Part shown: positions 21,173 through 59,810 of the stretch, piece by piece
Layout: each line of letters starts with the position of its first letter
Numbering within the stretch: position 1 is the first letter of the stretch
From: an uncultured Gemmatimonadota bacterium
Lineage (GTDB): Bacteria; JAAXHH01
Direction: 5' to 3'
DNA length: 64,000 nt
Assembly (NCBI GenBank): GCA_951812955.1
Contig: OX638340.1
Span: forward strand, 2,080,001 to 2,144,000
Program-made: the position numbers and the translations under genes
The notes under the pieces: model-generated
The model's input: only the letters and a program-made list of their open reading frames with translations
Told to the model about the DNA's origin: nothing
The model's database searches: none

Positions 21173-22630
21173 CTAGCGGCGGCGGTTTTCCGCGTCGATC
21201 CCGCCGCGCAACGGATCGAAGACCTTTTTCACGGTCTCGAACTGATCCTCGACCGCAGAGGGCCTGCCCAGCAACCGGTCGCTGACCATGCGCGCCGCCA
21301 CCGTGGCGTAGGCGTTGCCCCGGCCCGTGAAACCGGCAACGATGTGGACGCCCGGCGTTTCCGTCTCGCCCACAAATGGGCTGCTGTCGTAGGAGAAGCC
21401 CATGACGCCGCCCCAGCGGTGGGAGCGCCCGAGCGCGGCAAGGTGGGGGAAGGTGCTGTTGAATGACCGGTCGTTCGATCGTTGTACCGCCCGGGTGGGT
21501 CTTTCTTTGTAACCCCTGTAAGTCCGGATCTGCCGGCCCCTGCGCCTCAGGAAATGAAATCCCCGTTCGGCGCGGATATGGTGATTGCGCCCACCGCCGA
21601 AGAGCAGCCGGCCGCCTTCGCCTGGTCCGTCGTGCAACTGGCGCCAGAATTCCCACCCGTCGTTGGCGTAGAAGACGCCATTGAACAGCCGTTCTGAAAC
21701 GGGTTCCGTCGTGAAGACCTGTCCGCGTTGAGGAATGATGCGCCGTTCGTACCGGGCATCGAGCTGGGGCGTGTACGCGTTCATCCCCAGCAGCACGTGC
21801 TGCGTCCTGATCCTTCCGCCCGGTGTCTGGACCACGAGGCCGCCGGGTGATGAAACGCCCGAGCCGGCCCTTGAAACCGACGAGACGCCGCGTCCACCCG
21901 CGTCTCCGCGTCCACCCGCGTCTCCACGTCCATTCCCGTCCGCTCCGCGCCGCGCGATTGAGGTGACGGGCGTGTTTTCAAAGAACAGGACGCCCAGTCC
22001 GCTAGCGGCGCTGGCGAGGCCGCGCACGTACTTGACCGGGTGGAGTTCGCCGTCGAACTTGTTCCACAGGGCGCCGGCGAGCTGGGGGCTGCGCTTGATG
22101 CCGTATAGTCTGTCCTCGTCCAGGTACTCCACGTCGAAACCATCTTCCTGGAGAAGGTTGTATGATCGGACGATCCGTTCCAGGGGATCCGCGTGAGAAC
22201 CGCGGTCCGGCCGCTTCATCGCCATCACGTAGCTGCCGTGCCGGTAGTAGTCGCACTGTATTTTGTACTTCTCCATGAGACCGGCCATCAGATCATGATT
22301 CTCGAGGGCGATCCGCCACGCCTCCCCGGCCATCCTCCTGCCGTCCGCTCCGTACAGATCCGTCAATTCTTCCACGGCCTCGACGTAGTACTCATGGGTA
22401 CCGGCCAGCATGAACCCCCCGTTACGGCCCGTGGCGCCCGAGGCGACCTCGCGCCGTTCGAGCACGGCCACGCGCGCTCCGCCCTCGGCCAGGAACAGGG
22501 CGCCGGTCACCCCCGTCACGCCGCCGCCGATCACCACGACGTCCACATCGAGTTCGCCCGACAGGGGCCCCGAAGGTGTGTAAGGCATGTCCAGCCAGTA
22601 GGAGTCACGGATCATGGAGAGGTTCACCAA
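21173..22630 (-). CDS. FAD-dependent oxidoreductase (DAO / glycine-oxidase-like family) with low-complexity insertions
   Basis: Rossmann dinucleotide motif VVVIGGGVTGVTGALFLAEGGARVAVLER near the N-terminus and a DAO-like C-terminus (GVHIVAGFTGRGNAYATVAARMV). The track start is a TTG at 22630; an ATG (MIRDSYWLDMPY..) lies at 22615. Contains a Gly/Arg/Asp repeat insert and an Arg-rich odd-composition stretch (see findings). Confidence 0.65.
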   Translation of the reverse strand: MVNLSMIRDSYWLDMPYTPSGPLSGELDVDVVVIGGGVTGVTGALFLAEGGARVAVLERREVASGATGRNGGFMLAGTHEYYVEAVEELTDLYGADGRRMAGEAWRIALENHDLMAGLMEKYKIQCDYYRHGSYVMAMKRPDRGSHADPLERIVRSYNLLQEDGFDVEYLDEDRLYGIKRSPQLAGALWNKFDGELHPVKYVRGLASAASGLGVLFFENTPVTSIARRGADGNGRGDAGGRGDAGGRGVSSVSRAGSGVSSPGGLVVQTPGGRIRTQHVLLGMNAYTPQLDARYERRIIPQRGQVFTTEPVSERLFNGVFYANDGWEFWRQLHDGPGEGGRLLFGGGRNHHIRAERGFHFLRRRGRQIRTYRGYKERPTRAVQRSNDRSFNSTFPHLAALGRSHRWGGVMGFSYDSSPFVGETETPGVHIVAGFTGRGNAYATVAARMVSDRLLGRPSAVEDQFETVKKVFDPLRGGIDAENRRR

Positions 22631-23012
22631 TCTTGGATATTGCTTTCAAAAAAGGCCATAGTGGACTTAATCTGTTGGTTTTTTACGAGATTTCTGACTG
22701 ATTTCCGACTGTTATAGGATAAGGTGTAGTATTCTCCTGCGTCAAGGGCACGACATCGAATGGACCGTCCATGTGGCGTCGGATTGTTTATAGTTGTCAT
22801 AATCTATTGTAAACCACAAAAGTATTCCACTAAGTTTAAGTAAATACCCGGTTTTATCAATGCCAAGGAAGTTAAGAGAACTCAGACATGTCAAAGAGTT
22901 TGCAGGACGTTCAACAACCATGGTTTTAACAGCGAGGTTGTTTGGGGTCAGGTGCGATGAGCGTACTTGATTTTCCCGGCGGAATAGATGGCCGCGATGA
23001 GGAGTAAATCCG
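22631..23012. other. AT-rich (~42% GC) divergent intergenic island between the oxidoreductase and a small coiled-coil gene; probable promoter region, possible unannotated small RNA
   Basis: Composition contrasts sharply with the ~64% GC flanks; includes short direct repeats (gatttctgactgatttccgactg). Confidence 0.4.
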
Positions 23013-23309
23013 TTGGTTCGTAGACCATGGATGGACGTGACAATCAAGGCCGCGCTGATTGGCGCCGCAGTTCTGGTATATCTGGACCTGAAGGCCGAGA
23101 TCAGATCCGTACGGGTCGACCTGGGAACCAGGATCGACAGGTTGGAAACCAGGATGGGAACCAGGATCGGCAGGTTGGAAACCAGGATGGACAGGTTGGA
23201 AACCAAGGTGGACGGGTTGGAAACCAAAATCGACGAAGTACGGGGACATTTCAGGTTCGAAATGACCGAGCCAAACGAAAATCCGCCTCCCACGGACGTG
23301 AATCAATAG
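23013..23309 (+). CDS. Small membrane-anchored coiled-coil protein with internal 11-residue repeats (unknown function)
   Basis: TTG at 23013 is preceded by GAGGAG 8 nt upstream; an alternative ATG lies at 23031. N-terminal hydrophobic helix (VTIKAALIGAAVLVYL), then GTRIDRLETRM / GTRIGRLETRM / DRLETKVDGLETKIDEV repeats encoded by 33-bp DNA tandem repeats (23120-23230). Minus-strand ORFs here are shadows of the repeats. Confidence 0.45.
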   Translation: MVRRPWMDVTIKAALIGAAVLVYLDLKAEIRSVRVDLGTRIDRLETRMGTRIGRLETRMDRLETKVDGLETKIDEVRGHFRFEMTEPNENPPPTDVNQ

Positions 23310-23361
23310 CCTTCCTCAACCGGAGAAACCGGGGAATCGCAACAGGCTCGTCGACCCCGTC

Positions 23362-24279
23362 TCACACCTCCAGGACGGCGGCCAGGGTCTCCCCTTCATG
23401 CACGCGGTTGTAAGTCCGCAGGACCAGCACGTGACCGGACTGCGTGCACACGATTTCGTCCCGCCGGTCGCCCAGCAAGTCGGTGACCACGCCGAAAACG
23501 TCTCCCGGCGCGACGCGGTCCATCAGTTCCACCCAGGGCTCGAAGAACCCTGAGAACGGCGACGGATAGTTTAATTGGATATGGCCGGCCCCTTCCCGGT
23601 CGTCTTCCACCGTATGAATGATCCTCGATGGCGGCTGGTCCCGCTCGATCATGCCCAGCACGCCCATGACGTTAAGGCAACCTTCGTAGTACTGTTCAAC
23701 CCCCTCGGGATCGCAGTCCCCGGCACCCAACCATTCCGAGTAGATCGCAGGTATGCGGGCGTCGCGTGCTATGGACAGCGTGCGGCCGTCGTGGCCCGCG
23801 TACGTACCCCAGACGATCGGCATGTTGAAGGCCCGGGCCATCTCGCGCTGGGTCTCAAGGACCCCGGCATCGGGATGCAGCATGTACCCCACCGTCGGAT
23901 AGAACCTCGATATGAGCCCACCGCTGTGCAGATCAATCAGGTAGTCGGCCTCGCGGATCATTGCGCTTACCGCGTGGGCCACGCGCTCGGTGATGGTGCC
24001 GTCCTCCCGGCCCGGGCACGTGCGGGCCAGATCCAGGCCGTCCTCGGCGGTTCGCTGCCCGCGCCAGTACGCCGCCTCGTTGACGACGGGCACCAGGGTG
24101 ATGCTTCCCCGTAGATCATCGGGGTCCAGGGCATCTTTCAGGCGCCGGATGGTCCACATGGATTCGAATTCGTCGCCGTGGACGCCTCCGAGTATGAGCA
24201 GTTTCGGTCCGAGCGCCTTTCCTTTGATTGTGATGGACTTCAGCGTGACGGGGCCTGACATCTCGACGGGGCCTGACAT
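23362..24279 (-). CDS. Succinylglutamate desuccinylase / aspartoacylase family zinc hydrolase (AstE/AspA, M14-like)
   Basis: ..LLILGGVHGDEFESMW.. and ..LIDLHSGG.. zinc-ligand motifs. The N-terminus reads MSGPVEMSGPV because of an 18-bp tandem duplication; the true start may be the second Met (24264). Confidence 0.7.
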   Translation of the reverse strand: MSGPVEMSGPVTLKSITIKGKALGPKLLILGGVHGDEFESMWTIRRLKDALDPDDLRGSITLVPVVNEAAYWRGQRTAEDGLDLARTCPGREDGTITERVAHAVSAMIREADYLIDLHSGGLISRFYPTVGYMLHPDAGVLETQREMARAFNMPIVWGTYAGHDGRTLSIARDARIPAIYSEWLGAGDCDPEGVEQYYEGCLNVMGVLGMIERDQPPSRIIHTVEDDREGAGHIQLNYPSPFSGFFEPWVELMDRVAPGDVFGVVTDLLGDRRDEIVCTQSGHVLVLRTYNRVHEGETLAAVLEV

Positions 24280-38723: not shown

Positions 38724-39116
38724 GTCACGGTCCACCAAAAACCCTGCGGCCTACGGATTCATGGTAAGAAATCCGAAAGAGACTCGCAAGCAAAAAGGGA
38801 CGGGATTGCCCTGGTCCGGCGCAGTTGACAGGGTGCGTTTCCTCAGTGCATTCGGGTGCAGTCCGAACGATGAGACATGAATCGATCAGCTGGATTTCAA
38901 AGATGGGTTGATCTCGAATGAAAGCACAACGGAGACCATATTGCTGAAATTCAATTCGAGATATTCGCGTAGTTCTACACTATATTACATACATCATGCT
39001 CCATCAGTGGCCACGCTAAGACATCTCCGGTGAGCGTCGGTCGGCACATATTTGTTGGAAGACGTCATTGCTTTTATATTTGGGGTATGTCATCAACCCA
39101 CCGCGAAGGAGTCGAA

Positions 39117-39323
39117 ATGTCAGGACAAGATCCACTGGAAGTACCATCGACCCGGTGGGACTTCCTCGTCGAACGCCTGAACAAGATCGACAACCGTCTC
39201 TCTTCCCTCGAAAATGCCCAGAAACATGTCGCAACGAAGATGTGGGTCGTCGGAACCGGGCTGACGACCATCGTCGTTCTCACCGGACTGATCATCAACC
39301 TGCTCAATTACCTCAAGCCCTGA
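39117..39323 (+). CDS. Small (68 aa) coiled-coil protein with C-terminal TM helix (DUF1640 / XhlA-like architecture)
   Basis: ATG at 39117 with AAGGAG 5 nt upstream. MSGQDPLEVPSTRWDFLVERLNKIDNRLSSLENAQKHVATKMWVVGTGLTTIVVLTGLIINLLNYLKP. Sits in an AT-rich (~45% GC) spacer. Confidence 0.5.
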   Translation: MSGQDPLEVPSTRWDFLVERLNKIDNRLSSLENAQKHVATKMWVVGTGLTTIVVLTGLIINLLNYLKP

Positions 39324-41088: not shown

Positions 41089-42654
41089 TTGATGGACGCC
41101 CTTCTTAAATCGAAATCCAATGAAGCCGATCGGTCGTCAGCCAGCTCCGGAGACCGGGAAGCCCTGACCCGTAGATCCTTTCTCAAGCAGGCGGCTTTCG
41201 TGGCCGCGGCGATGGCCGCCCCCTTTCCCGTGCTGGCGGATCCCTACGCACCGCAGTCCAGGAGCGCTGCGGCGGCCGGCGTGCGTCCGGTCCGCGTCTC
41301 CGGCCGCGTGCTTTCAGGCAGGGCGGGTCTGGGCGGCGTCGCGGTAACGGACGGACTGTCCGTCACCGCCACCGACTCGGAAGGTCGATTCGAGCTCGTG
41401 TCCAACACGATTCAGTCCTTCGTATCGATCTCAACGCCCAACGGCTACGCGTTGGAGCAGAATCCAAGCGGCATTGCCTCGTTCTACCGGCCGATCATGC
41501 CGGACGACTCCGGAGAGATGGCTGTCAGCTTCGATCTCGCGGAACTGGACGGATCGGACGAACGCCACGGATTTCTGGTGCTCGCCGACCCGCAGACCCA
41601 GGACGCCTACGAAATGGGACTCTTCCACGCGGAGACCGTGCCGGACGTCAAGGAGACCTCCGCCGCGCTGGCCGGCCGCCGGCTCTTCGGCGTGGGCTGC
41701 GGAGACATCATGTTCGACGATCTGACCCTGTACCCCGAGTACGAGCGGGGCGTGCTTCGCATGGGCATGCCCTTCTTCCAGGTCGTCGGCAACCATGACC
41801 TGGACTTCGGGCCGACCGACGACGGATCCGTCCGCACGTTCTGCCGACACTTCGGCCCCAACTACTATTCCTTCGATCGCGGAGAAATCCACTACATCGT
41901 GCTGGACAACGTGTTCTGGCACGGAGAAGGATACATCGGGTACGTGACCGACGACCAGCTCAACTGGGTAACCCAGGACCTCGCCCTGGTCGAGACCGGC
42001 AGGACCGTGGTGGTCTTCAATCATATTCCCCAGTATACCACCCGTCATATCAGAACCGGGGTCGACAGCCCGTCCATTTCGTCCACGACTGTGAACCGCG
42101 AGCGTATGTACCGCCTCCTGGAACCCTACAAGACCCACGTGTTCTCCGGCCACGTGCACGAGCACGAGCATATCTTCGAGGGCGGGATACACGAGATCGT
42201 TCAGGGCACGGTCTGTGGCGCCTGGTGGAGCGGCCCCATCTGCTGGGACGGCACGCCCAACGGTTATGGCGTCTACGAGGTCGACGGATCGGATATCCGC
42301 TGGCGGTACAAGTCCACGGGCTTGCCCGAAGACCACCAGATGCGGGTCTACCTCCGGGGCAGCGATCCCGGAGCGCCGGACGAGATCGTTGCCAATGTCT
42401 GGGACTGGGATCCCGAATGGCGCGTCGTCTGGTACGAAGACGGCATGCGGAGAGGCGCCATGGCCAGACGTCCCGGCACCGATCCGCTGGCGGAATCCCT
42501 GCACAGAGGGGCCGACCTGCCCGAACGCCGGCCCTGGGTGGAACCGGTGATCACGAATCACCTGTTCTACGCGCCGGTTTCGACCCAGGCCCGGAAGGTG
42601 GTGGTCGAAGCGACGGACCGCTTTGGCCGGACTTATGCATCCGAACTGATCTGA
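41089..42654 (+). CDS. Tat-secreted calcineurin-like metallophosphoesterase with N-terminal carboxypeptidase-regulatory-like beta domain
   Basis: Twin-arginine motif TRRSFLKQAAFVAAAMAAP. ..RVSGRVLSGRAGLGGVAVTD..ATDSEGRFEL.. (CarboxypepD_reg-like). Phosphoesterase motifs GCGDIMFDD, VVGNHD, GHVHEHEH. Confidence 0.75.
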   Translation: MMDALLKSKSNEADRSSASSGDREALTRRSFLKQAAFVAAAMAAPFPVLADPYAPQSRSAAAAGVRPVRVSGRVLSGRAGLGGVAVTDGLSVTATDSEGRFELVSNTIQSFVSISTPNGYALEQNPSGIASFYRPIMPDDSGEMAVSFDLAELDGSDERHGFLVLADPQTQDAYEMGLFHAETVPDVKETSAALAGRRLFGVGCGDIMFDDLTLYPEYERGVLRMGMPFFQVVGNHDLDFGPTDDGSVRTFCRHFGPNYYSFDRGEIHYIVLDNVFWHGEGYIGYVTDDQLNWVTQDLALVETGRTVVVFNHIPQYTTRHIRTGVDSPSISSTTVNRERMYRLLEPYKTHVFSGHVHEHEHIFEGGIHEIVQGTVCGAWWSGPICWDGTPNGYGVYEVDGSDIRWRYKSTGLPEDHQMRVYLRGSDPGAPDEIVANVWDWDPEWRVVWYEDGMRRGAMARRPGTDPLAESLHRGADLPERRPWVEPVITNHLFYAPVSTQARKVVVEATDRFGRTYASELI

Positions 42655-42735
42655 GGCCGGTCCAAGACCGACTCCGAGGCATCCGAACTGATCTGAGGCC
42701 GGTCCAAGACCGACTCCGAGGCGTCCGAAACTCAC
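42639..42735. repeat. Tandem duplication of a 42-bp unit (atccgaactgatctgaggccggtccaagaccgactccgaggc) covering the last codons and stop of the phosphoesterase gene
   Basis: Copies at 42639-42680 and 42681-42722, plus a partial third copy. Confidence 0.75.
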
Positions 42736-42812: not shown

Positions 42813-43772
42813 ATGGCGAACGACGGCCTGATAAGCCCCTTCGACATCGATGACGAGGGATACTTCTGGCTCAAGGGCAATCTGCATTCCCACACGACCA
42901 ATTCCGACGGGAAGCCGTCACCCCAGGAACGGCTGGACGGGTACGTCAACCAGGGATACGATTTCCTGTGTATTTCCGATCACTACACCATAACCAGGAT
43001 CGACACGGTCAGCGCGCCGGACGATTTCGTCCTGGTGCAGGGTGCGGAGATCCATCCTGAGAACCCCTTTGGCGGCCAGACCCACCACTTCCTGGCCTAC
43101 AACATCGACGAAGACATGGATTCGAAGCGCATGCCGCCGCAGCACGTCATAGACGAGGTGCGCCGGCAGGGCGGCTCGATCTGGCTCGCCCATCCCCACT
43201 GGAGTTCGGTCAACATCCTCCGGGATACCCTGCCCCTTCACGGCCTGGCAGGCATCGAAGTCTTCAACACCACTTGCCGGTGCGCCGGACGCGGCGAGTC
43301 CTCCGTACACTGGGACGACTGGATGGACCTGCTGGGAAGGCCGATTCCAGCGCTCTCCAACGACGACTCCCACGCCCTCGAGTCGGAAAACCGGGATACC
43401 TACGGGGGCTGGAACATGGTGAAGGTCAAAGAACGCACGGCGAAGGCGATCATCGACGCGCTGGAAAGAGGCTGTGCGTACGTCAGTTCCGGACCCGAGA
43501 TCCGGGACATCCAGTTGCACCGCGTCGACGATATGGGTGATGGGAAACAGGTCGTGGAGGCGAGTATCCGGTGTTCAGAGGCGCAGAGCATTCTCGCCGT
43601 GTTCGATTCCCATGGTACGGAGTTTCGGGACCGGACAGGCCATGGAAAAACCTTCGAAGATGCCACGTTTACGCTGCGGCCCAATGTACGGTGGGTAAGA
43701 TTCGAGATCATCGCCCCGGACGGCACGAAGGCCTGGTCGAATCCCATGGATCTGGCGAAAGTCGGTCGGTGA
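42813..43772 (+). CDS. PHP-domain metal-dependent phosphoesterase (CehA/McbA-like)
   Basis: ..LKGNLHSHTTNSDGKPSPQERL.. matches the PHP HxH..SDG motif. ..ISDHYTI.. and ..AHPHW.. add further metal ligands; 319 aa. Confidence 0.7.
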   Translation: MANDGLISPFDIDDEGYFWLKGNLHSHTTNSDGKPSPQERLDGYVNQGYDFLCISDHYTITRIDTVSAPDDFVLVQGAEIHPENPFGGQTHHFLAYNIDEDMDSKRMPPQHVIDEVRRQGGSIWLAHPHWSSVNILRDTLPLHGLAGIEVFNTTCRCAGRGESSVHWDDWMDLLGRPIPALSNDDSHALESENRDTYGGWNMVKVKERTAKAIIDALERGCAYVSSGPEIRDIQLHRVDDMGDGKQVVEASIRCSEAQSILAVFDSHGTEFRDRTGHGKTFEDATFTLRPNVRWVRFEIIAPDGTKAWSNPMDLAKVGR

Positions 43773-43890
43773 TACCGCCGCGGACCGCTACAGTGGGCGT
43801 TCAGAACTCGGAGGTCGAATCCCATGGATCTGGCGAAAGTCGGTCGGTGATACCGCCGCGGACCGGCACGGTGGGCGTTCAGGACTCGGA
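43737..43890. repeat. Tandem duplication of a 77-bp unit covering the last 12 codons and stop of the PHP gene plus 38 bp downstream
   Basis: Unit 1 at 43737-43813 and unit 2 at 43814-43890, about 93% identical; the second copy re-encodes ..SNPMDLAKVGR-stop. Confidence 0.75.
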
Positions 43891-43946
43891 GACTGCCGTC
43901 CCGCGTGTTGGAGGGCGTCTGCGGTCGGCCGATGGCCGATTCGAAG

Positions 43947-49061: not shown

Positions 49062-51452
49062 TCAAAATGATCCACTGCCGAGTGGCATATTCACAAACGC
49101 GCAATGAAGAATGACATTGCTGTAGGAGTCAATCGTCTCGCCCGCACGGGGTGTGAAGGTACTTGTAAAACTGCGGCTGCCTGTGACGTTCCCAAAATGC
49201 CTGGCGCCAGTAGGAGCGGGACCGCTACGCCAATTGATAGAGGCACTGGTGTATAGAAACAAATGTGCAGCAATCCCGCCTCCAGTGTTCATTCCGGTTA
49301 TGGTCAGTTTGAGTCGACCGCCGGAGACTTCTTCGAAGGTCACGGACCCGGCGGTGCTCGGATAGCTGCTCGTACCGGAAATTGAAGCAGTACGGCTTCT
49401 CAACATCGGTGGAGGCGGCGGAGGCTCGGTCACCGTCAACGACGCCGTACCGGACTTGCCGTCCACCTCTGCTGTTATCGTCGTGGATCCGGCATTCCGT
49501 GCCCTGGCCAGTCCCGTGGTGCTTATGGTCGCAACCGACGTGTTGCTGCTCGTCCACGTAAAAGTCTTCCCGGTAATCTCCATGTTGTTCGAGTCATAGG
49601 CTGTCGCAGTGAATCGTTGCGTCTCGCCTTCTTCGATCGAACGGGAAGATGGAGACACGGCAACCCGGTCAACTACGGGGGGTGGAGGCGGAGGTTCCGT
49701 CACCCTTAACGTCGCTGTGCCGGATACGCCGTCGACGGTTGCCGAGATCGTCGTGGAACCTGCATCCAGGCCCCTCGCCAACCCAGTTACACTTATCGTG
49801 GCTACCGTCTCATCAGAACTTGACCACGTAAACGTCTTGCCCGTTATCTCGGAATTGTCCGACGTGTGGGCGGTGGCAGAAAACCGCCGGGTCTCACCCT
49901 CCTCGATTGACGCTGAGGAGGGACTCACTGTCACGGTTGCGACCATCGGTGGTGGTGGCGGAGGTGGTTCGGTCACTGTGAGCGTCGCCGTGCCGGATAC
50001 TCCATCAGTCGTCGCCGTGATCATCGCTTCGCCCATTCCGACACCAGTCGCCAGGCCGTTCGCGTCGACCGTCGCCACCATGTCATCCGAACTCGACCAT
50101 GTAAACTCCACGTCCGGGATTTCCATCCCGTCCGACGTCATTGCCATCGCCGCGAACTGCTGCGTCGCGCCTACCTCGATCGTCGCTTCAAGTGGACTCA
50201 CTGACACCGTCGATACCACCGGCTCGGGTGGCGGTGGTTCGGTCACTGTGAGCGTCGCCGTGCCGGATACTTCGTCAGTCGTCGCCGTGATCATCGTTTC
50301 GCCCGTTCCGACACCGGTCGCCAGGCCATTCGCGTCGACCGTCGCAACCATCTCGTCAGAACTCGACCACGTAAACTCCGCGTCCGGGATTTCCATCCCG
50401 TCCGACGTCATTGCCATCGCCGCGAACTGCTGCGTCGCGCCTTCTTCGATCGTGGCTTCCGATGGACTCACTGTCACGGTTGCTACAACTGGCTCTACTG
50501 GCTCGGGTGGAGGCGGTTCGGTCACCGTCAGTGTCGCCATGCCGGATACACTGTCCGCGGTAGCCGTGATCATCGCCTCGCCTGCTCCTACACCACTCGC
50601 CAGGCCGTTCGCGTCGACCGTCGCCACCATCTCGTCAGAACTCGACCACGTAATCTCCGCGTCCGGGATATCCATCTCGTCCGATGTCGAAGCCATCGCC
50701 GCGAACTGCTGCGTCGCGCCTACCTCGATCATCGCTTCAGGTGGACTCACCGACACAGTCGATACCACCGGATCGGGAGGCGGAAGTTCGGCTACGTTAA
50801 TGGTAACCGGCGAACTCGCTATACCGTCCGCCGTGGCGCGGACCGTTGCCGTACCCGCTGCGACTGCCGTGGCAACGCCGGCCGATGTAATGGTCACTTT
50901 GCTGGTATCGCTGCTCGCCCATGAGAAACTGACACCTTCGCGAATGGCGCCTCCAGACGTCCGGGCCGTCGCCGTGAAGGTCACCATTTCCCCAACCATC
51001 AGCTCCTGGGTCGAGGAAGGAGAGATCGTGACCCGGGCCACGGCGGCCTGGGTGACCGTGATCGTCACCGGTTCGCTCACGATGCCGTTTCCCGTCGCTC
51101 TGATGGTCGCCGTACCAACACTTACCGCGGTTGCCCGTCCACCGGCACTGATGGTTACTACGGCGGTATTACTGCTGGACCAGGTATAATTGACACCGCT
51201 TATTACGGCGCCGTCGGAAGCCTTGGCGGTCGCAGCCAACTGTTGTGTTCTGCCCACTTCCAGAGACACCATGTTCGGACTCACTTCGATGCGAGAGACC
51301 GTCGGTGCGGGGGGAGGTGTCGGCGTCGGTGTGGGTGTTGTCGGCTCGGCCGGTCTGGTCGGGGAGGAGTCCCCACCGCCGCACCCGACATTCAGCAATG
51401 CGCTTGAAACCGCTATCATGATGAGACCGGTAGCAATCGACCTGAATGACAT
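49062..51452 (-). CDS. Cell-surface lipoprotein with nine tandem bacterial Ig-like (Big_2) domains and a distinct C-terminal domain
   Basis: Lipobox (..ALLNVGCGG) and a Pro/Thr-rich linker. Nine ~85-aa repeats of the form (V)SxSPxxxxIEVGxTQQFxAxAxTSDG..ITxxxFTWSSSDxxVATVDANGLATGVGxGExxITAT..GVSGTATLTVTEPPPP. The DNA repeats span about 49300-51100; the antisense ORF 49609..51189 is a shadow. Confidence 0.75.
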   Translation of the reverse strand: MSFRSIATGLIMIAVSSALLNVGCGGGDSSPTRPAEPTTPTPTPTPPPAPTVSRIEVSPNMVSLEVGRTQQLAATAKASDGAVISGVNYTWSSSNTAVVTISAGGRATAVSVGTATIRATGNGIVSEPVTITVTQAAVARVTISPSSTQELMVGEMVTFTATARTSGGAIREGVSFSWASSDTSKVTITSAGVATAVAAGTATVRATADGIASSPVTINVAELPPPDPVVSTVSVSPPEAMIEVGATQQFAAMASTSDEMDIPDAEITWSSSDEMVATVDANGLASGVGAGEAMITATADSVSGMATLTVTEPPPPEPVEPVVATVTVSPSEATIEEGATQQFAAMAMTSDGMEIPDAEFTWSSSDEMVATVDANGLATGVGTGETMITATTDEVSGTATLTVTEPPPPEPVVSTVSVSPLEATIEVGATQQFAAMAMTSDGMEIPDVEFTWSSSDDMVATVDANGLATGVGMGEAMITATTDGVSGTATLTVTEPPPPPPPMVATVTVSPSSASIEEGETRRFSATAHTSDNSEITGKTFTWSSSDETVATISVTGLARGLDAGSTTISATVDGVSGTATLRVTEPPPPPPVVDRVAVSPSSRSIEEGETQRFTATAYDSNNMEITGKTFTWTSSNTSVATISTTGLARARNAGSTTITAEVDGKSGTASLTVTEPPPPPPMLRSRTASISGTSSYPSTAGSVTFEEVSGGRLKLTITGMNTGGGIAAHLFLYTSASINWRSGPAPTGARHFGNVTGSRSFTSTFTPRAGETIDSYSNVILHCAFVNMPLGSGSF

Positions 51453-57371: not shown

Positions 57372-58133
57372 ATGACCAAACTCAGCGTCAACGTCAACAA
57401 GGTGGCCCTGTTGCGGAACACGCGCGTGCACGGCATACCCAGCGTGACCGGTGCGGCACGGACCGCGATCGAGGCCGGGGCCTACGGCATCACCGTGCAC
57501 CCCCGGCCCGACCAGCGGCACATCACGCCCGGCGACGTGGACGACCTGGCCGAAATGCTGAAAGTTTACCCGGAGATCGAGTACAATATCGAGGGCAATC
57601 CATTTCACCAGGTCATGGACATCGTCCGCAAGGTCCGCCCCACCCAGGCGACCCTGGTTCCCGACGATCCGGACGCTTTCACATCGGATCAAGGCTGGGA
57701 TGTGACGGCCAATGCCGAAAGACTGATACCGATCATCGCGGAATTGAAAGACCTTGGCTGCCGGGTCAGCCTGTTCATGGACGCGGATCTCGATCAGATC
57801 GAGCGCGTTCCTGACATCGGCGCAGACCGGATCGAGCTGTACACCGAACCCTATGCCGTGGCCTTTGCGGAAGGACCGGAACAGATGCAACCCGTACTGT
57901 CATCCTTCGCCAGGGCGGCGGAACGCGCCCACGAGATCGGCCTGGCCGTCAACGCCGGTCACGATCTCAACCTCGACAACCTGGCGGTGTTCTGCGGAAC
58001 GGTCCCGAACGTGCTCGAAGTCTCCATCGGCCACGCGCTGGTCGCCGACGCGCTGGATATGGGGTTGAAGAACGCCGTGGGGGCCTACCTGGGCGAACTT
58101 GAGAAAGCGGAAACGATTTCCACCAGTTCGTAA
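57372..58133 (+). CDS. pdxJ: Pyridoxine 5'-phosphate synthase
   Basis: MTKLSVNVNKVALLRNTRVHGIPSV..GAYGITVHPRPDQRHI.. is highly characteristic of PdxJ; 253 aa from ATG 57372. Confidence 0.9.
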   Translation: MTKLSVNVNKVALLRNTRVHGIPSVTGAARTAIEAGAYGITVHPRPDQRHITPGDVDDLAEMLKVYPEIEYNIEGNPFHQVMDIVRKVRPTQATLVPDDPDAFTSDQGWDVTANAERLIPIIAELKDLGCRVSLFMDADLDQIERVPDIGADRIELYTEPYAVAFAEGPEQMQPVLSSFARAAERAHEIGLAVNAGHDLNLDNLAVFCGTVPNVLEVSIGHALVADALDMGLKNAVGAYLGELEKAETISTSS

Positions 58134-58134
58134 A

Positions 58135-58260
58135 CACTTGAGCGATTCGAGTAACTTGAGTACTTGAGTACTTGAGTAGTTTGAGTAATAAAGTATTATG
58201 GAGTTTATTCTGAATGAGGAAGTTTGTACCGAACGAGATGTTTATACTAAACGAGTTCAT
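58135..58260. repeat. AT-rich intergenic spacer with tandem cttgagta-type 8-9-mers (4-5x) and three ~17-bp gaaYgagRWgtttRta repeats, upstream of the M16 peptidase pair
   Basis: Direct reading; GC content far below the window average. Confidence 0.55.
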
Positions 58261-58298
58261 CTGATTCACAAACACGATACCCCCTGGAGGTTGTTTAC

Positions 58299-59810
58299 AT
58301 GATAGTCCGATTGACGCGGTACTTCCCACTGGTTATCGCGATTCTTGCGTTGTCCGGCCCTGCGCAGGCCCAGGACCTGGCCGCATTTGAAAAGAACGTC
58401 ACGGAATTCACCCTCGACAACGGACTGACTTTCATCGTGGTGGAGAACCATGACGCCCCCGTCCTCACCGTCCTCACCTACGCGGACGTCGGCTCCGTGG
58501 ACGAGGTCAAGGGCATTACCGGCATGGCCCATGTCTTCGAGCACATGGCCTTCAAAGGCACGACGACCATCGGCGCAATGGACCTGGAATCCGAGTACGC
58601 GGCCATGCAGAAAGTGGACGAGATATTTGACGATCTCCGTAGCGAGCGGCACAAGGGCCACCAGGCCGACCCCGAGCGCCTGGCAAGCCTCGAACAGGAC
58701 TTCGAGGACGCCAAGAAGGCGGCCCGTGAATTTGCCGAGTCCAGCGCCATGGACGAAGCCATCGACAGGTCGGGCGGCACCGGCCTGAACGCGACCACCA
58801 GCCGGGATGCCACGAGGTATTTCTACAGCCTCCCTTCGAACAAGCTCGAGCTATTCTTCGCGTTGGAGTCGAGCCGCTTCCTCGACCCGGTGCTCCGTGA
58901 GTTCTTCGTCGAACGGGACGTGGTCATGGAAGAACGGCGGATGAGCGAAAGCAGTCCGACCGGACGCCTGGTGGAGGAGATGCTGAGTACCGCTTACAAG
59001 GCCCATCCCTATGGCGAGCCGACCCTGGGCCACATGTCGGACCTGGAATCAATGACCCGCACGGAGGCCATGGATTTCTTCAGACGGTATTACGGCGCCG
59101 ACAATCTGACGATCATCATCTCGGGCGACGCGGACCCCGCGCACGTCAAGGAACTGGCCCATGAGTATTTCGATCGCCTTCCGGCCGGGCCTCCCATAGA
59201 ACCGGTTGAAACGGTTGAACCCCCTCAACTGGCGGAGCGCCGCGTGATCATGGAGGACAAGTCACAGCCGGTGATATTGATGGGTTATCACAAGGTCGAC
59301 ATCAATCACGAAGACGACGTGGTCTTCAATGTACTGTCGGATATTATCGGAAGCGGTCGGACCAGCCGCCTGTACACGTCACTCGTCAAGGAACAGAAAA
59401 TCGCGGTCAACGCGTCTTCCTTTACGGACTTTCCTGGCAGCAAGTACCCCAACATGATGGTGTTCTTTGCCTTTCCCAGCAAGGATCATACCGCTGCGGA
59501 CACTGAGAAAGCCATCGAGGAAGAAATCGAACGCATCCGAAACGAAGAAGTTACCGAAGAGGAACTTTCCAGGGCAAAAGTGCGAGCCCGGGTAAACCTG
59601 ATCCGCCAGCTCGACTCCAATATGGGACTTGCGCTTCAAATGGCTTATTTTCATGTGCTTACGGGTGACTGGCGGGAACTCTTCCATAGTATAGACCAGA
59701 TCAGTGAAGTGACCGCCGAGGATATCAAGCGCGTTGCCAATCAGTACCTGGTTCCCAAGAACCGGACGGTGGCTTCAATCGTAACCTTGGAAGATGAATC
59801 TACGGAATAG
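58299..59810 (+). CDS. M16-family zinc metallopeptidase (pitrilysin-like), catalytic subunit, secreted
   Basis: GGAGG 8 nt upstream of the ATG. Signal peptide (..AILALSGPAQA). Inverted zinc motif HVFEHMAFKGT (HxxEH). 503 aa. Confidence 0.85.
   Translation: MIVRLTRYFPLVIAILALSGPAQAQDLAAFEKNVTEFTLDNGLTFIVVENHDAPVLTVLTYADVGSVDEVKGITGMAHVFEHMAFKGTTTIGAMDLESEYAAMQKVDEIFDDLRSERHKGHQADPERLASLEQDFEDAKKAAREFAESSAMDEAIDRSGGTGLNATTSRDATRYFYSLPSNKLELFFALESSRFLDPVLREFFVERDVVMEERRMSESSPTGRLVEEMLSTAYKAHPYGEPTLGHMSDLESMTRTEAMDFFRRYYGADNLTIIISGDADPAHVKELAHEYFDRLPAGPPIEPVETVEPPQLAERRVIMEDKSQPVILMGYHKVDINHEDDVVFNVLSDIIGSGRTSRLYTSLVKEQKIAVNASSFTDFPGSKYPNMMVFFAFPSKDHTAADTEKAIEEEIERIRNEEVTEEELSRAKVRARVNLIRQLDSNMGLALQMAYFHVLTGDWRELFHSIDQISEVTAEDIKRVANQYLVPKNRTVASIVTLEDESTE

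Follow-up and report, generated by a model that had tools for sequence, protein, structure and literature searches.

The 64-kb window analysed here (64,000 nucleotides of contig OX638340.1, from an uncultured Gemmatimonadota bacterium) contains an AT-rich spacer at 22631-23012, followed by a small gene at 23013-23309 for a 98-amino-acid (98-aa) coiled-coil protein. We propose, with a probability of roughly 0.6 for the two-part explanation as a whole, that the spacer is a regulatory region scarred by the loss of a toxin-antitoxin (TA) cassette and that the gene encodes a single-helix, membrane-anchored coiled-coil protein. Alignment with related genomes showed that the spacer carries the scar of a deleted hicAB pair, and the spacer would be a compound regulatory region in which type II TA cassettes have also landed and decayed. 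By its sequence, the small protein is a member of an undescribed, lineage-restricted family of predicted single-helix coiled-coil proteins for which there is no Pfam model. The features of the spacer are as follows.

22631-23012, no strand: AT-rich intergenic spacer between the divergent FAD oxidoreductase (DAO) gene and the small coiled-coil gene; 42.4% GC.
22677-22718, + strand: bipartite motif TTTACGAGA-N14-TCCGACT, then an A/T-rich TAnnnT-like box, putative promoter or operator; 47.4 bits, best in the window, with a 42-nt weight matrix whose training set included its orthologues but not the copy in the window itself.
22689-22710, + strand: 11-bp direct repeat GATTTCTGACT / GATTTCCGACT inside the motif.
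22716-22745, - strand: sigma70-like promoter for DAO, by hexamer match: TTGACG (22745-22740), an 18-nt spacer and TATCCT (22721-22716).
22751-22781, no strand: imperfect inverted repeat with 15-nt arms, 73% complementary; left arm conserved in six related loci.
22860-22883, + strand: hicA remnant, ATG CCA AGG AAG TTA AGA GAA CTC (MPRKLREL), the first eight codons of the HicA toxin gene of relatives L001, L010 and L011.
22885-23012, + strand: stretch homologous, by alignment, to the DNA 3' of hicB in L001, L010 and L011, now the leader of the coiled-coil gene.

The scar was recognised from a two-block alignment. Window positions 22500-22884 aligned with L001 4081-4464 (88.6%) and positions 22878-23400 with L001 4866-5366 (90.8%), and the same two blocks with identical junctions were recovered in L010 and L011. 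The 401-bp segment between the blocks, present in these three relatives and absent from the window, begins at hicA codon 9 and stops where a hicB-like gene ends; its HicA scored 44.6 bits against Pfam HicA_toxin (cutoff 27), and the 78-aa partner matched the PHROG 'HicB-like' family (E = 9e-4). The junction, at 22878-22884, falls in an imperfect repeat of 6-7 bp whose left copy is GAACTC and right copy GAACCC, and is spanned in the window by a 36-codon chimeric open reading frame (ORF). A 401-bp deletion between these short imperfect repeats would have taken out hicA, from its codon 9 onwards, together with the whole of hicB. Neither a toxin nor an antitoxin frame was found in the window, where tblastn with HicA and HicB was negative and the eight hicA codons alone remain.

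We then surveyed 17 syntenic loci for cassettes by tblastn. Full hicAB was present in six, a hicA fragment with hicB in two, higB + higA + hicB in one and partial versions of the latter arrangement in two; a higB fragment alone occurred in one locus and a hicB fragment alone in two, and three loci were empty. Intact hicAB was found in L001, L008, L010, L011, L019 and L107. The relatives thus carry HicA with a HicB-like protein, or HigB (72.8 bits) with an HTH_3 antitoxin (36.9 bits), at exactly the same site, and these hicAB or higBA cassettes or fragments are positioned between the bipartite motif and the small gene, whereas nothing functional is left in the window apart from the chimeric ORF. 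As judged from these loci, the site is shown to be a recurrent place of TA cassette arrival, exchange and decay, with the window representing one more decay event, and it provides a clear small example of such turnover at one fixed chromosomal position. In L010, the closest species representative, the hicA frame (1677-1868) opens with ATA and has no start codon within the few codons that precede it; this toxin gene may already be inactive, with hicB intact.

The composition of the spacer is consistent with this history. The 382-bp spacer has 42.4% GC against a mean of 60.9% for the window, and the lowest 382-bp stretch in the 64 kb, at 22593-22974, has 41.6% (z = -4.9); only the flanking genes alone attain 62-72%. 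A preliminary description of this DNA had reported an island of ~42% GC in a genome of ~64%, of which the first value held and the second was too high for the window. Promoter DNA in the spacer has ~35-41% GC and TA cassettes ~51%, in genomes of 61-64%, so the low GC of the spacer is explained by promoter DNA together with remnants of a ~51% GC cassette. The same description had called the spacer compositionally foreign or regulatory, and both terms apply: it contains promoter elements, and it is partly foreign as a TA cassette remnant, toxin-antitoxin genes being a class generally regarded as mobile. Among syntenic loci the spacer ranges from ~190 to 1108 bp, and its DAO-proximal ~136 bp retain 81-83% identity even in two more distant species. 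The practical value is one of annotation, as what looked like an odd AT-rich island proves to be ordinary promoter DNA with a TA deletion scar.

Within the conserved part of the spacer, the bipartite motif has its cores at 22685-22690 (ACGAGA) and 22705-22710 (CCGACT), with the TAnnnT-like box 1-3 nt further on. A two-strand search of 492 kb gave 16 exact matches, every one of them 5' of a family gene and in its orientation; the same holds for 27 of the 37 matches with at most one mismatch. At unrelated loci the motif also precedes family genes from other subfamilies, in the same orientation as the gene and usually 80-220 nt before the start. With a matrix built from the syntenic group only, 5 of 21 other loci had their locus-wide top match no more than 300 nt upstream of the gene (chance, ~1.8% per locus), and two more strong sites were found, each 5' of another small coiled-coil gene. 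These results show, at the level of sequence comparison, an association between the motif and the family. The distance from motif to start codon was 428-1041 nt in loci with cassettes and 139-268 nt in loci without a full cassette, namely 143 and 139 nt in two cassette-free loci and 268 nt in the locus with a higB fragment. In L025 (3134-4318), three small coiled-coil membrane genes stand in a row behind a single full motif, encoding in order a 69-aa tail-anchored protein, a 122-aa subfamily-A-like protein with EIRSVRT repeats and a 115-aa subfamily-B protein.

The suggestion that the spacer could harbour promoters was therefore borne out by the presence of two candidate elements, the sigma70-like DAO promoter and the bipartite motif. 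The blocks GCGTCAAGG and AGGATA/AGAATA are retained in most loci of the syntenic group (A1) and absent at paralogue loci; the leftward sigma70-like promoter would serve DAO, with the rightward bipartite motif back-to-back with it. We also considered 22716-22745 as the sole promoter of the spacer and dropped it, since the overlapping + strand motif recurs at unrelated loci, and both elements were therefore kept. A role of the motif as the lineage's housekeeping promoter was ruled out by a single exact copy in the 64-kb window and by matches with up to two mismatches that were fewer than expected by chance. The two conserved boxes, TTACGAG and TTCCGAC, resemble each other and lie 20 nt apart, and in the syntenic group a third copy stands between them with an 11-bp period; this geometry would fit an alternative-sigma promoter or tandem activator sites alike. 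We read the motif at 22677-22718 as a putative promoter or operator of the coiled-coil gene family, which is probably controlled through it: the family genes would be expressed from an alternative sigma factor promoter or a transcription activator site and would form a small regulon, possibly with further small membrane proteins among its members. The inverted repeat at 22751-22781 is a possible, putative regulator site.

Metagenome contigs were scanned with the pattern TTTACGAGAT-N13-CCGACT and the matches rescored; the figures below refer to the matches listed. After rescoring, at least about 15 loci looked authentic. They included more family members (L107, L118, L142) and a further subfamily (L166 1490-1912; L169 4708-4975; L176 ~880-1245, - strand) with an N-terminal hydrophobic helix (MELAQLLITPGTLL.AFIFF), variable ELKEE/EMR-type repeats and a conserved end MHDMNGRLGRVEGLLR, which the family hidden Markov model (HMM) detects weakly (E = 9e-6). 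The motif (38-44 bits) was also found ~140 nt upstream of genes for a secreted DNA/RNA non-specific endonuclease (Pfam Endonuclease_NS, 85 bits), at L092 7332(-), L105 4856(+), L103 1177(-) and L151 8699(+), in marine contigs of ~50-55% GC.

The small gene itself has the following features.

23013-23309, + strand: gene for the 98-aa coiled-coil protein, TTG start, from ORF and conservation.
23028-23090, + strand: hydrophobic N-terminal helix, codons 6-26, WMDVTIKAALIGAAVLVYLDL; conserved, a marginal candidate membrane anchor.
23122-23234, + strand: tandem repeats (Tandem Repeats Finder), two hendecads and the following stalk heptads.
23208-23258, + strand: near-invariant C-terminal motif, codons 66-82, VDGLETKIDEVRGHFRF (family form IDRVETKVDEVRGYLKF), with Y79H and L80F unique to the window allele.
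23259-23306, + strand: proline-rich acidic tail, predicted disordered.

To place this gene, we searched 5.8 billion proteins and found 44 full-length relatives of 67-129 aa, for which the sole name on record is 'hypothetical protein', from metagenome-assembled genomes (MAGs) of Gemmatimonadetes/Gemmatimonadota. Their alignment has an invariant N-terminal block (PWMDVTIKAALIGAAVLxYLDLKAEIR), a middle part with a member-dependent number of RIDRVEx-type units, and an invariant C-terminal block followed by a proline-rich acidic tail. The ratio of non-synonymous to synonymous substitution rates (dN/dS) between orthologues was 0.10-0.30 at dS of up to ~1, measured in hand-picked conserved blocks only. 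The Shine-Dalgarno sequence GAGGAG was confirmed at 23000-23005, seven nt before the TTG, as previously described, and the TTG start is supported by the similarity of distant orthologues to the window, which begins at 23000-23012. The comparison thus shows the ORF to be a genuine conserved gene. An ORF lost beside a spacer conserved in relatives, the pattern that the preliminary description had set against its own view, was not seen; the reverse was found, with the ORF conserved and the spacer variable.

A scan of one genome per species yielded 43 loci, with 2-4 per genome, all in MAGs labelled Gemmatimonadetes, Candidatus Latescibacterota or 'bacterium'; several isolate names (APA, IRC, Plut, SB06xx) look sponge- or coral-derived, on a reading of the names. 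On this distribution, the family is confined to one group of uncultured marine bacteria. Its subfamilies differ in the N-terminal helix and the repeat type and have the C-terminal motif in common, and each occupies its own conserved chromosomal site among unrelated metabolic genes, with no neighbour common to the subfamilies. Among 1.84 billion cluster representatives, ~16 clusters matched at E <= 1e-10, and 17 inspected short matches carried the C-terminal motif or close variants; ~500 weaker matches, judged by their lengths and match positions, look like generic coiled coil. The window protein scored 129.7 bits against the family HMM and has the hydrophobic N-terminal helix, the heptad/hendecad stalk, the IDRVETK(V/I)DEVRGYL(K/R)F motif and the proline-rich tail of the family, deviating at Y79H and L80F. 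At one paralogous site, beside PhyH genes, the 3' DNA consists of BREX genes (BrxB, BrxC-like) in L006 (5702-10222) and of a NAGLU-type glycosidase gene in L007 (5249-8035), a swap indicating that this second family locus borders a variable defence island.

The repeats were as the preliminary description had reported, with an addition: a 33-bp unit is present in 2.1 copies (97% matches, 23122-23190), and a 21-bp array in 4.0 copies (84% matches, 23150-23234) accompanies it. They encode GTRIDRLETRM and GTRIGRLETRM and then heptads; hydrophobic residues recur at 3-4 (heptad) and 3-4-4 (hendecad) intervals. Members of the syntenic group have 22, 33, 36, 40, 43, 47, 50, 54 or 75 residues between the hydrophobic helix and the DEV of the C-terminal motif. 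Each of these equals 22 + 7a + 11b with b <= 1, a form that ~28% of the integers in this range fit; changes in length therefore preserve the register of the coiled coil. The alignments accordingly show, for the syntenic group, that stalk length evolves by in-register gain and loss of 7- and 11-residue units; across the whole family it ranges from 18 to 99 residues. AlphaFold, with the family alignment as input, predicted a single helix over residues 5-83, with a block-mean predicted local distance difference test score (pLDDT) of 89-95 over residues 11-70 and a disordered tail. In the proposed arrangement, the N-terminal hydrophobic segment would anchor the protein in the cytoplasmic membrane and probably mediate self-association, the stalk would form a parallel coiled coil, and the near-invariant motif DRVETKVDEVRGYLKF with the proline-rich tail would be a functional end contacting a conserved partner. 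A terminator-like hairpin with a T-run lies on the - strand at 23281-23297, inside the 3' end of the small gene and where the convergent AstE-type gene would terminate.

Several observations weigh against this explanation. The preference for a deletion in the window over an insertion in the other genomes rests on parsimony, as the remnant retains the hicA start and upstream DNA. The motif-family association, although strong, is not universal, because many subfamily-C and some subfamily-B loci have no motif or a degenerate one, and most of the metagenome matches listed were chance occurrences in unrelated low-GC gut and soil contigs. The window has 328 nt, including the chimeric ORF, between motif and start codon, so a nearer, unrecognised promoter may drive the small gene. 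The earlier claim of an N-terminal transmembrane (TM) helix stands as to a conserved hydrophobic helix and is weakened as to its strength, which is marginal: 12 residues (AALIGAAVLVYL, between K12 and D25) make up the strictly apolar run, the 19-residue Kyte-Doolittle mean of 1.65 is close to the usual threshold of 1.6, and a simple additive Hessa score is unfavourable. With so short a segment between K12 and D25, membrane insertion is not assured, and the flanking charges gave no clear topology; two paralogous subfamilies have clearer hydrophobic segments of 19-20 residues. Finally, the window allele reads GHFRF where 13 of 13 close relatives read GYLRF (codons 79-80, 23247-23252), positions Y79 and L80 being conserved in at least 90% of the family. 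Compared with L010, codons 1-70 carry no non-synonymous and three synonymous differences, and codons 71-98 six non-synonymous and no synonymous ones. The window copy may thus be under relaxed constraint, counts as small as these being insufficient to separate it from adaptive change. The allele also ends NQ (codon 97, 23301-23303), compared with KQ in 13 of 13 close relatives.

Other explanations of the spacer and the ORF were weighed against the same data. A small RNA, as the preliminary description had suggested, or a riboswitch-like leader could account for the composition and conservation of a spacer that is long (382 bp) and 81-83% conserved over its first ~136 bp in two more distant species. 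Yet an Rfam scan gave no match at the gathering threshold in the whole window and only noise at 22450-23450 (E = 3.5 and 9.4). The folding energies of a putative 301-nt leader and of the DAO leader did not differ from those of shuffles (z = -0.42 and +1.07), so that neither candidate strand folds better than chance; the conserved blocks coincide with the promoter-like hexamers and the bipartite motif, and the remaining spacer is replaced outright in other species. An RNA is thus very improbable. The view that the ORF is a chance frame produced by DNA tandem repeats, with the repeat as the real feature, might appeal to the long antisense ORFs that also cross the repeats, but these are inconsistently present. 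The + frame is conserved with its start codon and Shine-Dalgarno sequence, its protein being kept through abundant synonymous change, and repeat-free members of 73 aa retain both ends; conservation already refutes this view, and we give it next to no probability. That the small protein is the third component of a TA module, its role lost with the hicAB deletion, is suggested by the arrangement of most syntenic loci, in which hicB or a hicB fragment immediately precedes the small gene in the same orientation, and by a window allele that lacks hicAB and is uniquely substituted at near-invariant positions. Three syntenic loci, however, have the small gene without any cassette trace, paralogues at three other genomic sites lack adjacent TA genes, and the cassette type changes between hicAB and higBA while the small gene is constant. 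The data in hand already point to independence of gene and cassette, and a third component is highly unlikely.

For the protein, the preliminary description had proposed resemblance to the XhlA and DUF1640 types; another idea is that the island is a prophage or lysis-cassette remnant encoding an XhlA/holin-associated or spanin-like lysis factor. XhlA and DUF1640 are likewise small proteins with one membrane helix and a coiled coil, and besides this general build the idea can draw on sub-threshold matches to XhlA (PF10779: 16.4 bits, E = 0.011, over 26 residues, cutoff 34.7) and to a PHROG 'hemolysin' family (E = 0.0065). Every score is below its curated cutoff; no CCDC90-like (PF07798) match was obtained for the window protein at E <= 1, and a distant subfamily reached 21.9 bits against a cutoff of 33.5. 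In XhlA and DUF1640/CCDC90-like proteins the coiled coil precedes the membrane helix, the reverse of the order in the window protein. No relative was found among 2.9 million viral contigs, and the window gene lacks a phage or mitochondrial context and flanking phage genes. Every syntenic relative examined, at dS of up to ~1, has the same metabolic neighbourhood, in the order DAO, small gene, AstE and PcRGLX-like, in place of a phage lysis module. The resemblance was not upheld, and a lysis factor, already largely refuted, is exceedingly improbable. A further possibility, by analogy, is that the protein serves as an envelope tether or spacer: from an anchor in the inner membrane, the coiled coil would span the periplasm, and the C-terminal motif would contact peptidoglycan or the outer membrane together with the tail. 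A rod-like single helix with a conserved end, length changes in register and, in most members, a lysine among the last three residues would suit such a role. Braun's lipoprotein (Lpp) would be an analogue from the opposite side, but it has a lipobox cysteine, and the window protein has neither a lipobox nor any cysteine. In addition, stalks of 18 to 99 residues across the family, with 73-92-aa copies coexisting in one genome, would make a poor fixed-distance ruler, and we consider a tether quite unlikely.

Returning to the single-helix coiled-coil family, searches of Pfam, NCBIfam, PHROGs and PADLOC gave the small protein sub-threshold generic coiled-coil matches only, and a PDB profile search returned troponin I, SNAP-25, designed coiled coils and similar entries at E >= 0.02, which is compositional noise. 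The best Pfam score was that of DUF7310 (PF23991, an archaeal coiled-coil region; 25.1 bits), which is also a faint or weak precomputed match on many relatives; it lies below the 40-bit cutoff and covers residues 50-79, 30 residues of generic coiled coil without the N-terminal helix or the C-terminal motif.

The closest analogues, by analogy of build, are the Borrelia Bdr proteins and the small stress-regulon membrane proteins YqjD/ElaB/YgaM and PspB. Bdr (KID-repeat) proteins are small, paralogous and inner-membrane-associated, with short K/R-I-D-rich tandem repeats and no known function (PMC4370689, PMC10016077). The window family is also small, paralogous and organised around short tandem repeats with K/R-I-D, its membrane association being predicted; KID/KIE-like tripeptides are RID, RIG, KVD and KID in the window and KIDRVETKIDRVE in relatives, a resemblance only. 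In Bdr proteins the repeat number varies between copies, the anchor is C-terminal and the tail lacks the features of the window family, whose anchor is N-terminal. Bdr genes reside on Borrelia plasmids and prophages, in contrast to the fixed chromosomal syntenic sites of the window family, and the invariant C-terminal motif and proline-rich tail occur only in the latter; no Bdr/KID-repeat family appeared among the Pfam matches at E <= 1. YqjD, ElaB and YgaM are C-tail-anchored ribosome-inactivating proteins (bioRxiv 10.1101/2024.08.16.608256; PMC6389858). These DUF883 proteins and PspB, which are expressed under a stress regulator, resemble the window protein, as an analogy only, in a short paralogous single-helix membrane build with a helical cytoplasmic part; the analogy covers build and not ribosome binding or stress induction, and the anchor of the window protein is at the other end from that of YqjD/ElaB/YgaM. 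The window protein had no DUF883 match in the Pfam search and scored 13.3 bits against PspB (TIGR02976; cutoff 51.7).

A second small gene of similar kind lies at 39.1 kb.

38948-38989, + strand: upstream element AATTCAATTCGAGATATTCGCGTAGTTCTACACTATATTACA, second-best motif match in the window, 20.1 bits.
39117-39323, + strand: the second small ORF, of 68 aa, with a coiled coil ahead of a C-terminal TM helix; it belongs to its own conserved lineage-specific family.

The upstream element ranks second among 128,000 window positions (next independent match, 10.3 bits) and lies ~130 nt upstream of the ORF. It is conserved in most fetched orthologues as TTCGAGA-N14-TATACTATATTACA, though not in L053 and weakly in L057/L058, and has a -10-like TATACT in place of CCGACT. 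Within the lineage the ORF has 56 relatives that are 60-100% identical, and it keeps a fixed syntenic place beside a serine hydroxymethyltransferase gene. Its domain order, with a strong C-terminal TM helix, is opposite to that of the first protein and follows the tail-anchored order of YqjD/ElaB/YgaM. Common ancestry of the two proteins was ruled out by BLASTP (E = 8.6) and by the family HMM, which gave no match at E <= 10. The similarity noted in the preliminary description thus extends to a coiled coil, a TM helix and a related upstream element, and stops short of homology; the sites may, suggestively, share regulation and not ancestry. With the 69-aa tail-anchored protein of L025, the 39.1-kb ORF has only a 13-residue coiled-coil stretch in common.

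Taken further, the motif could mark an undescribed regulon of this Gemmatimonadota/Latescibacterota-like branch under an alternative sigma factor or response regulator. Its core would comprise several families of very small single-helix coiled-coil membrane proteins, N- and tail-anchored and of evolvable stalk length, with secreted enzymes such as the non-specific nuclease, in a function comparable to that of the stress-induced E. coli YqjD/ElaB/YgaM set, and TA cassettes would have lodged repeatedly in the long leader behind one of its promoters. We offer this picture tentatively and consider it, in full, rather unlikely. If the motif does define a regulon, it would be a first handle on transcriptional control in this lineage, which to our knowledge has no cultured members. 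None of the findings overturns current understanding; an unnamed narrow family is added to the catalogue of small bacterial membrane proteins, and its in-register stalk variation, 17-residue near-invariant end and shared upstream motif make it experimentally approachable.

Pfam profile searches identified the left neighbour of the spacer as an FAD oxidoreductase on the - strand (DAO, 187 bits) and the right neighbour of the small gene as an AstE/AspA-type desuccinylase, also on the - strand. Both look functionally unrelated to the small protein, in agreement with the preliminary description. Elsewhere in the window, an equally deep AT-rich dip on the 200-bp scale occurs at 58104-58311 (38% GC over 200 bp), in intergenic DNA flanked by a pdxJ-like gene and one that is M16-like peptidase-like, as assigned by eye. 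It contains a GAGTACTT tandem repeat of 4.6 copies, and a check of this dip for a third small coiled-coil gene revealed no such ORF and no motif match. Other tandem repeats in the window are located at 49963-50791 (270 bp x 3.0, 84%), 43735-43891 (78 bp x 2.0, 94%) and 42637-42729 (42 bp x 2.2, 98%). Within the DAO gene, an 18-bp tandem repeat at 21888-21940 (- strand) encodes GRGDAGGRGDAGGRG; RGD tripeptides recur in this insert, whose length and sequence vary among relatives.

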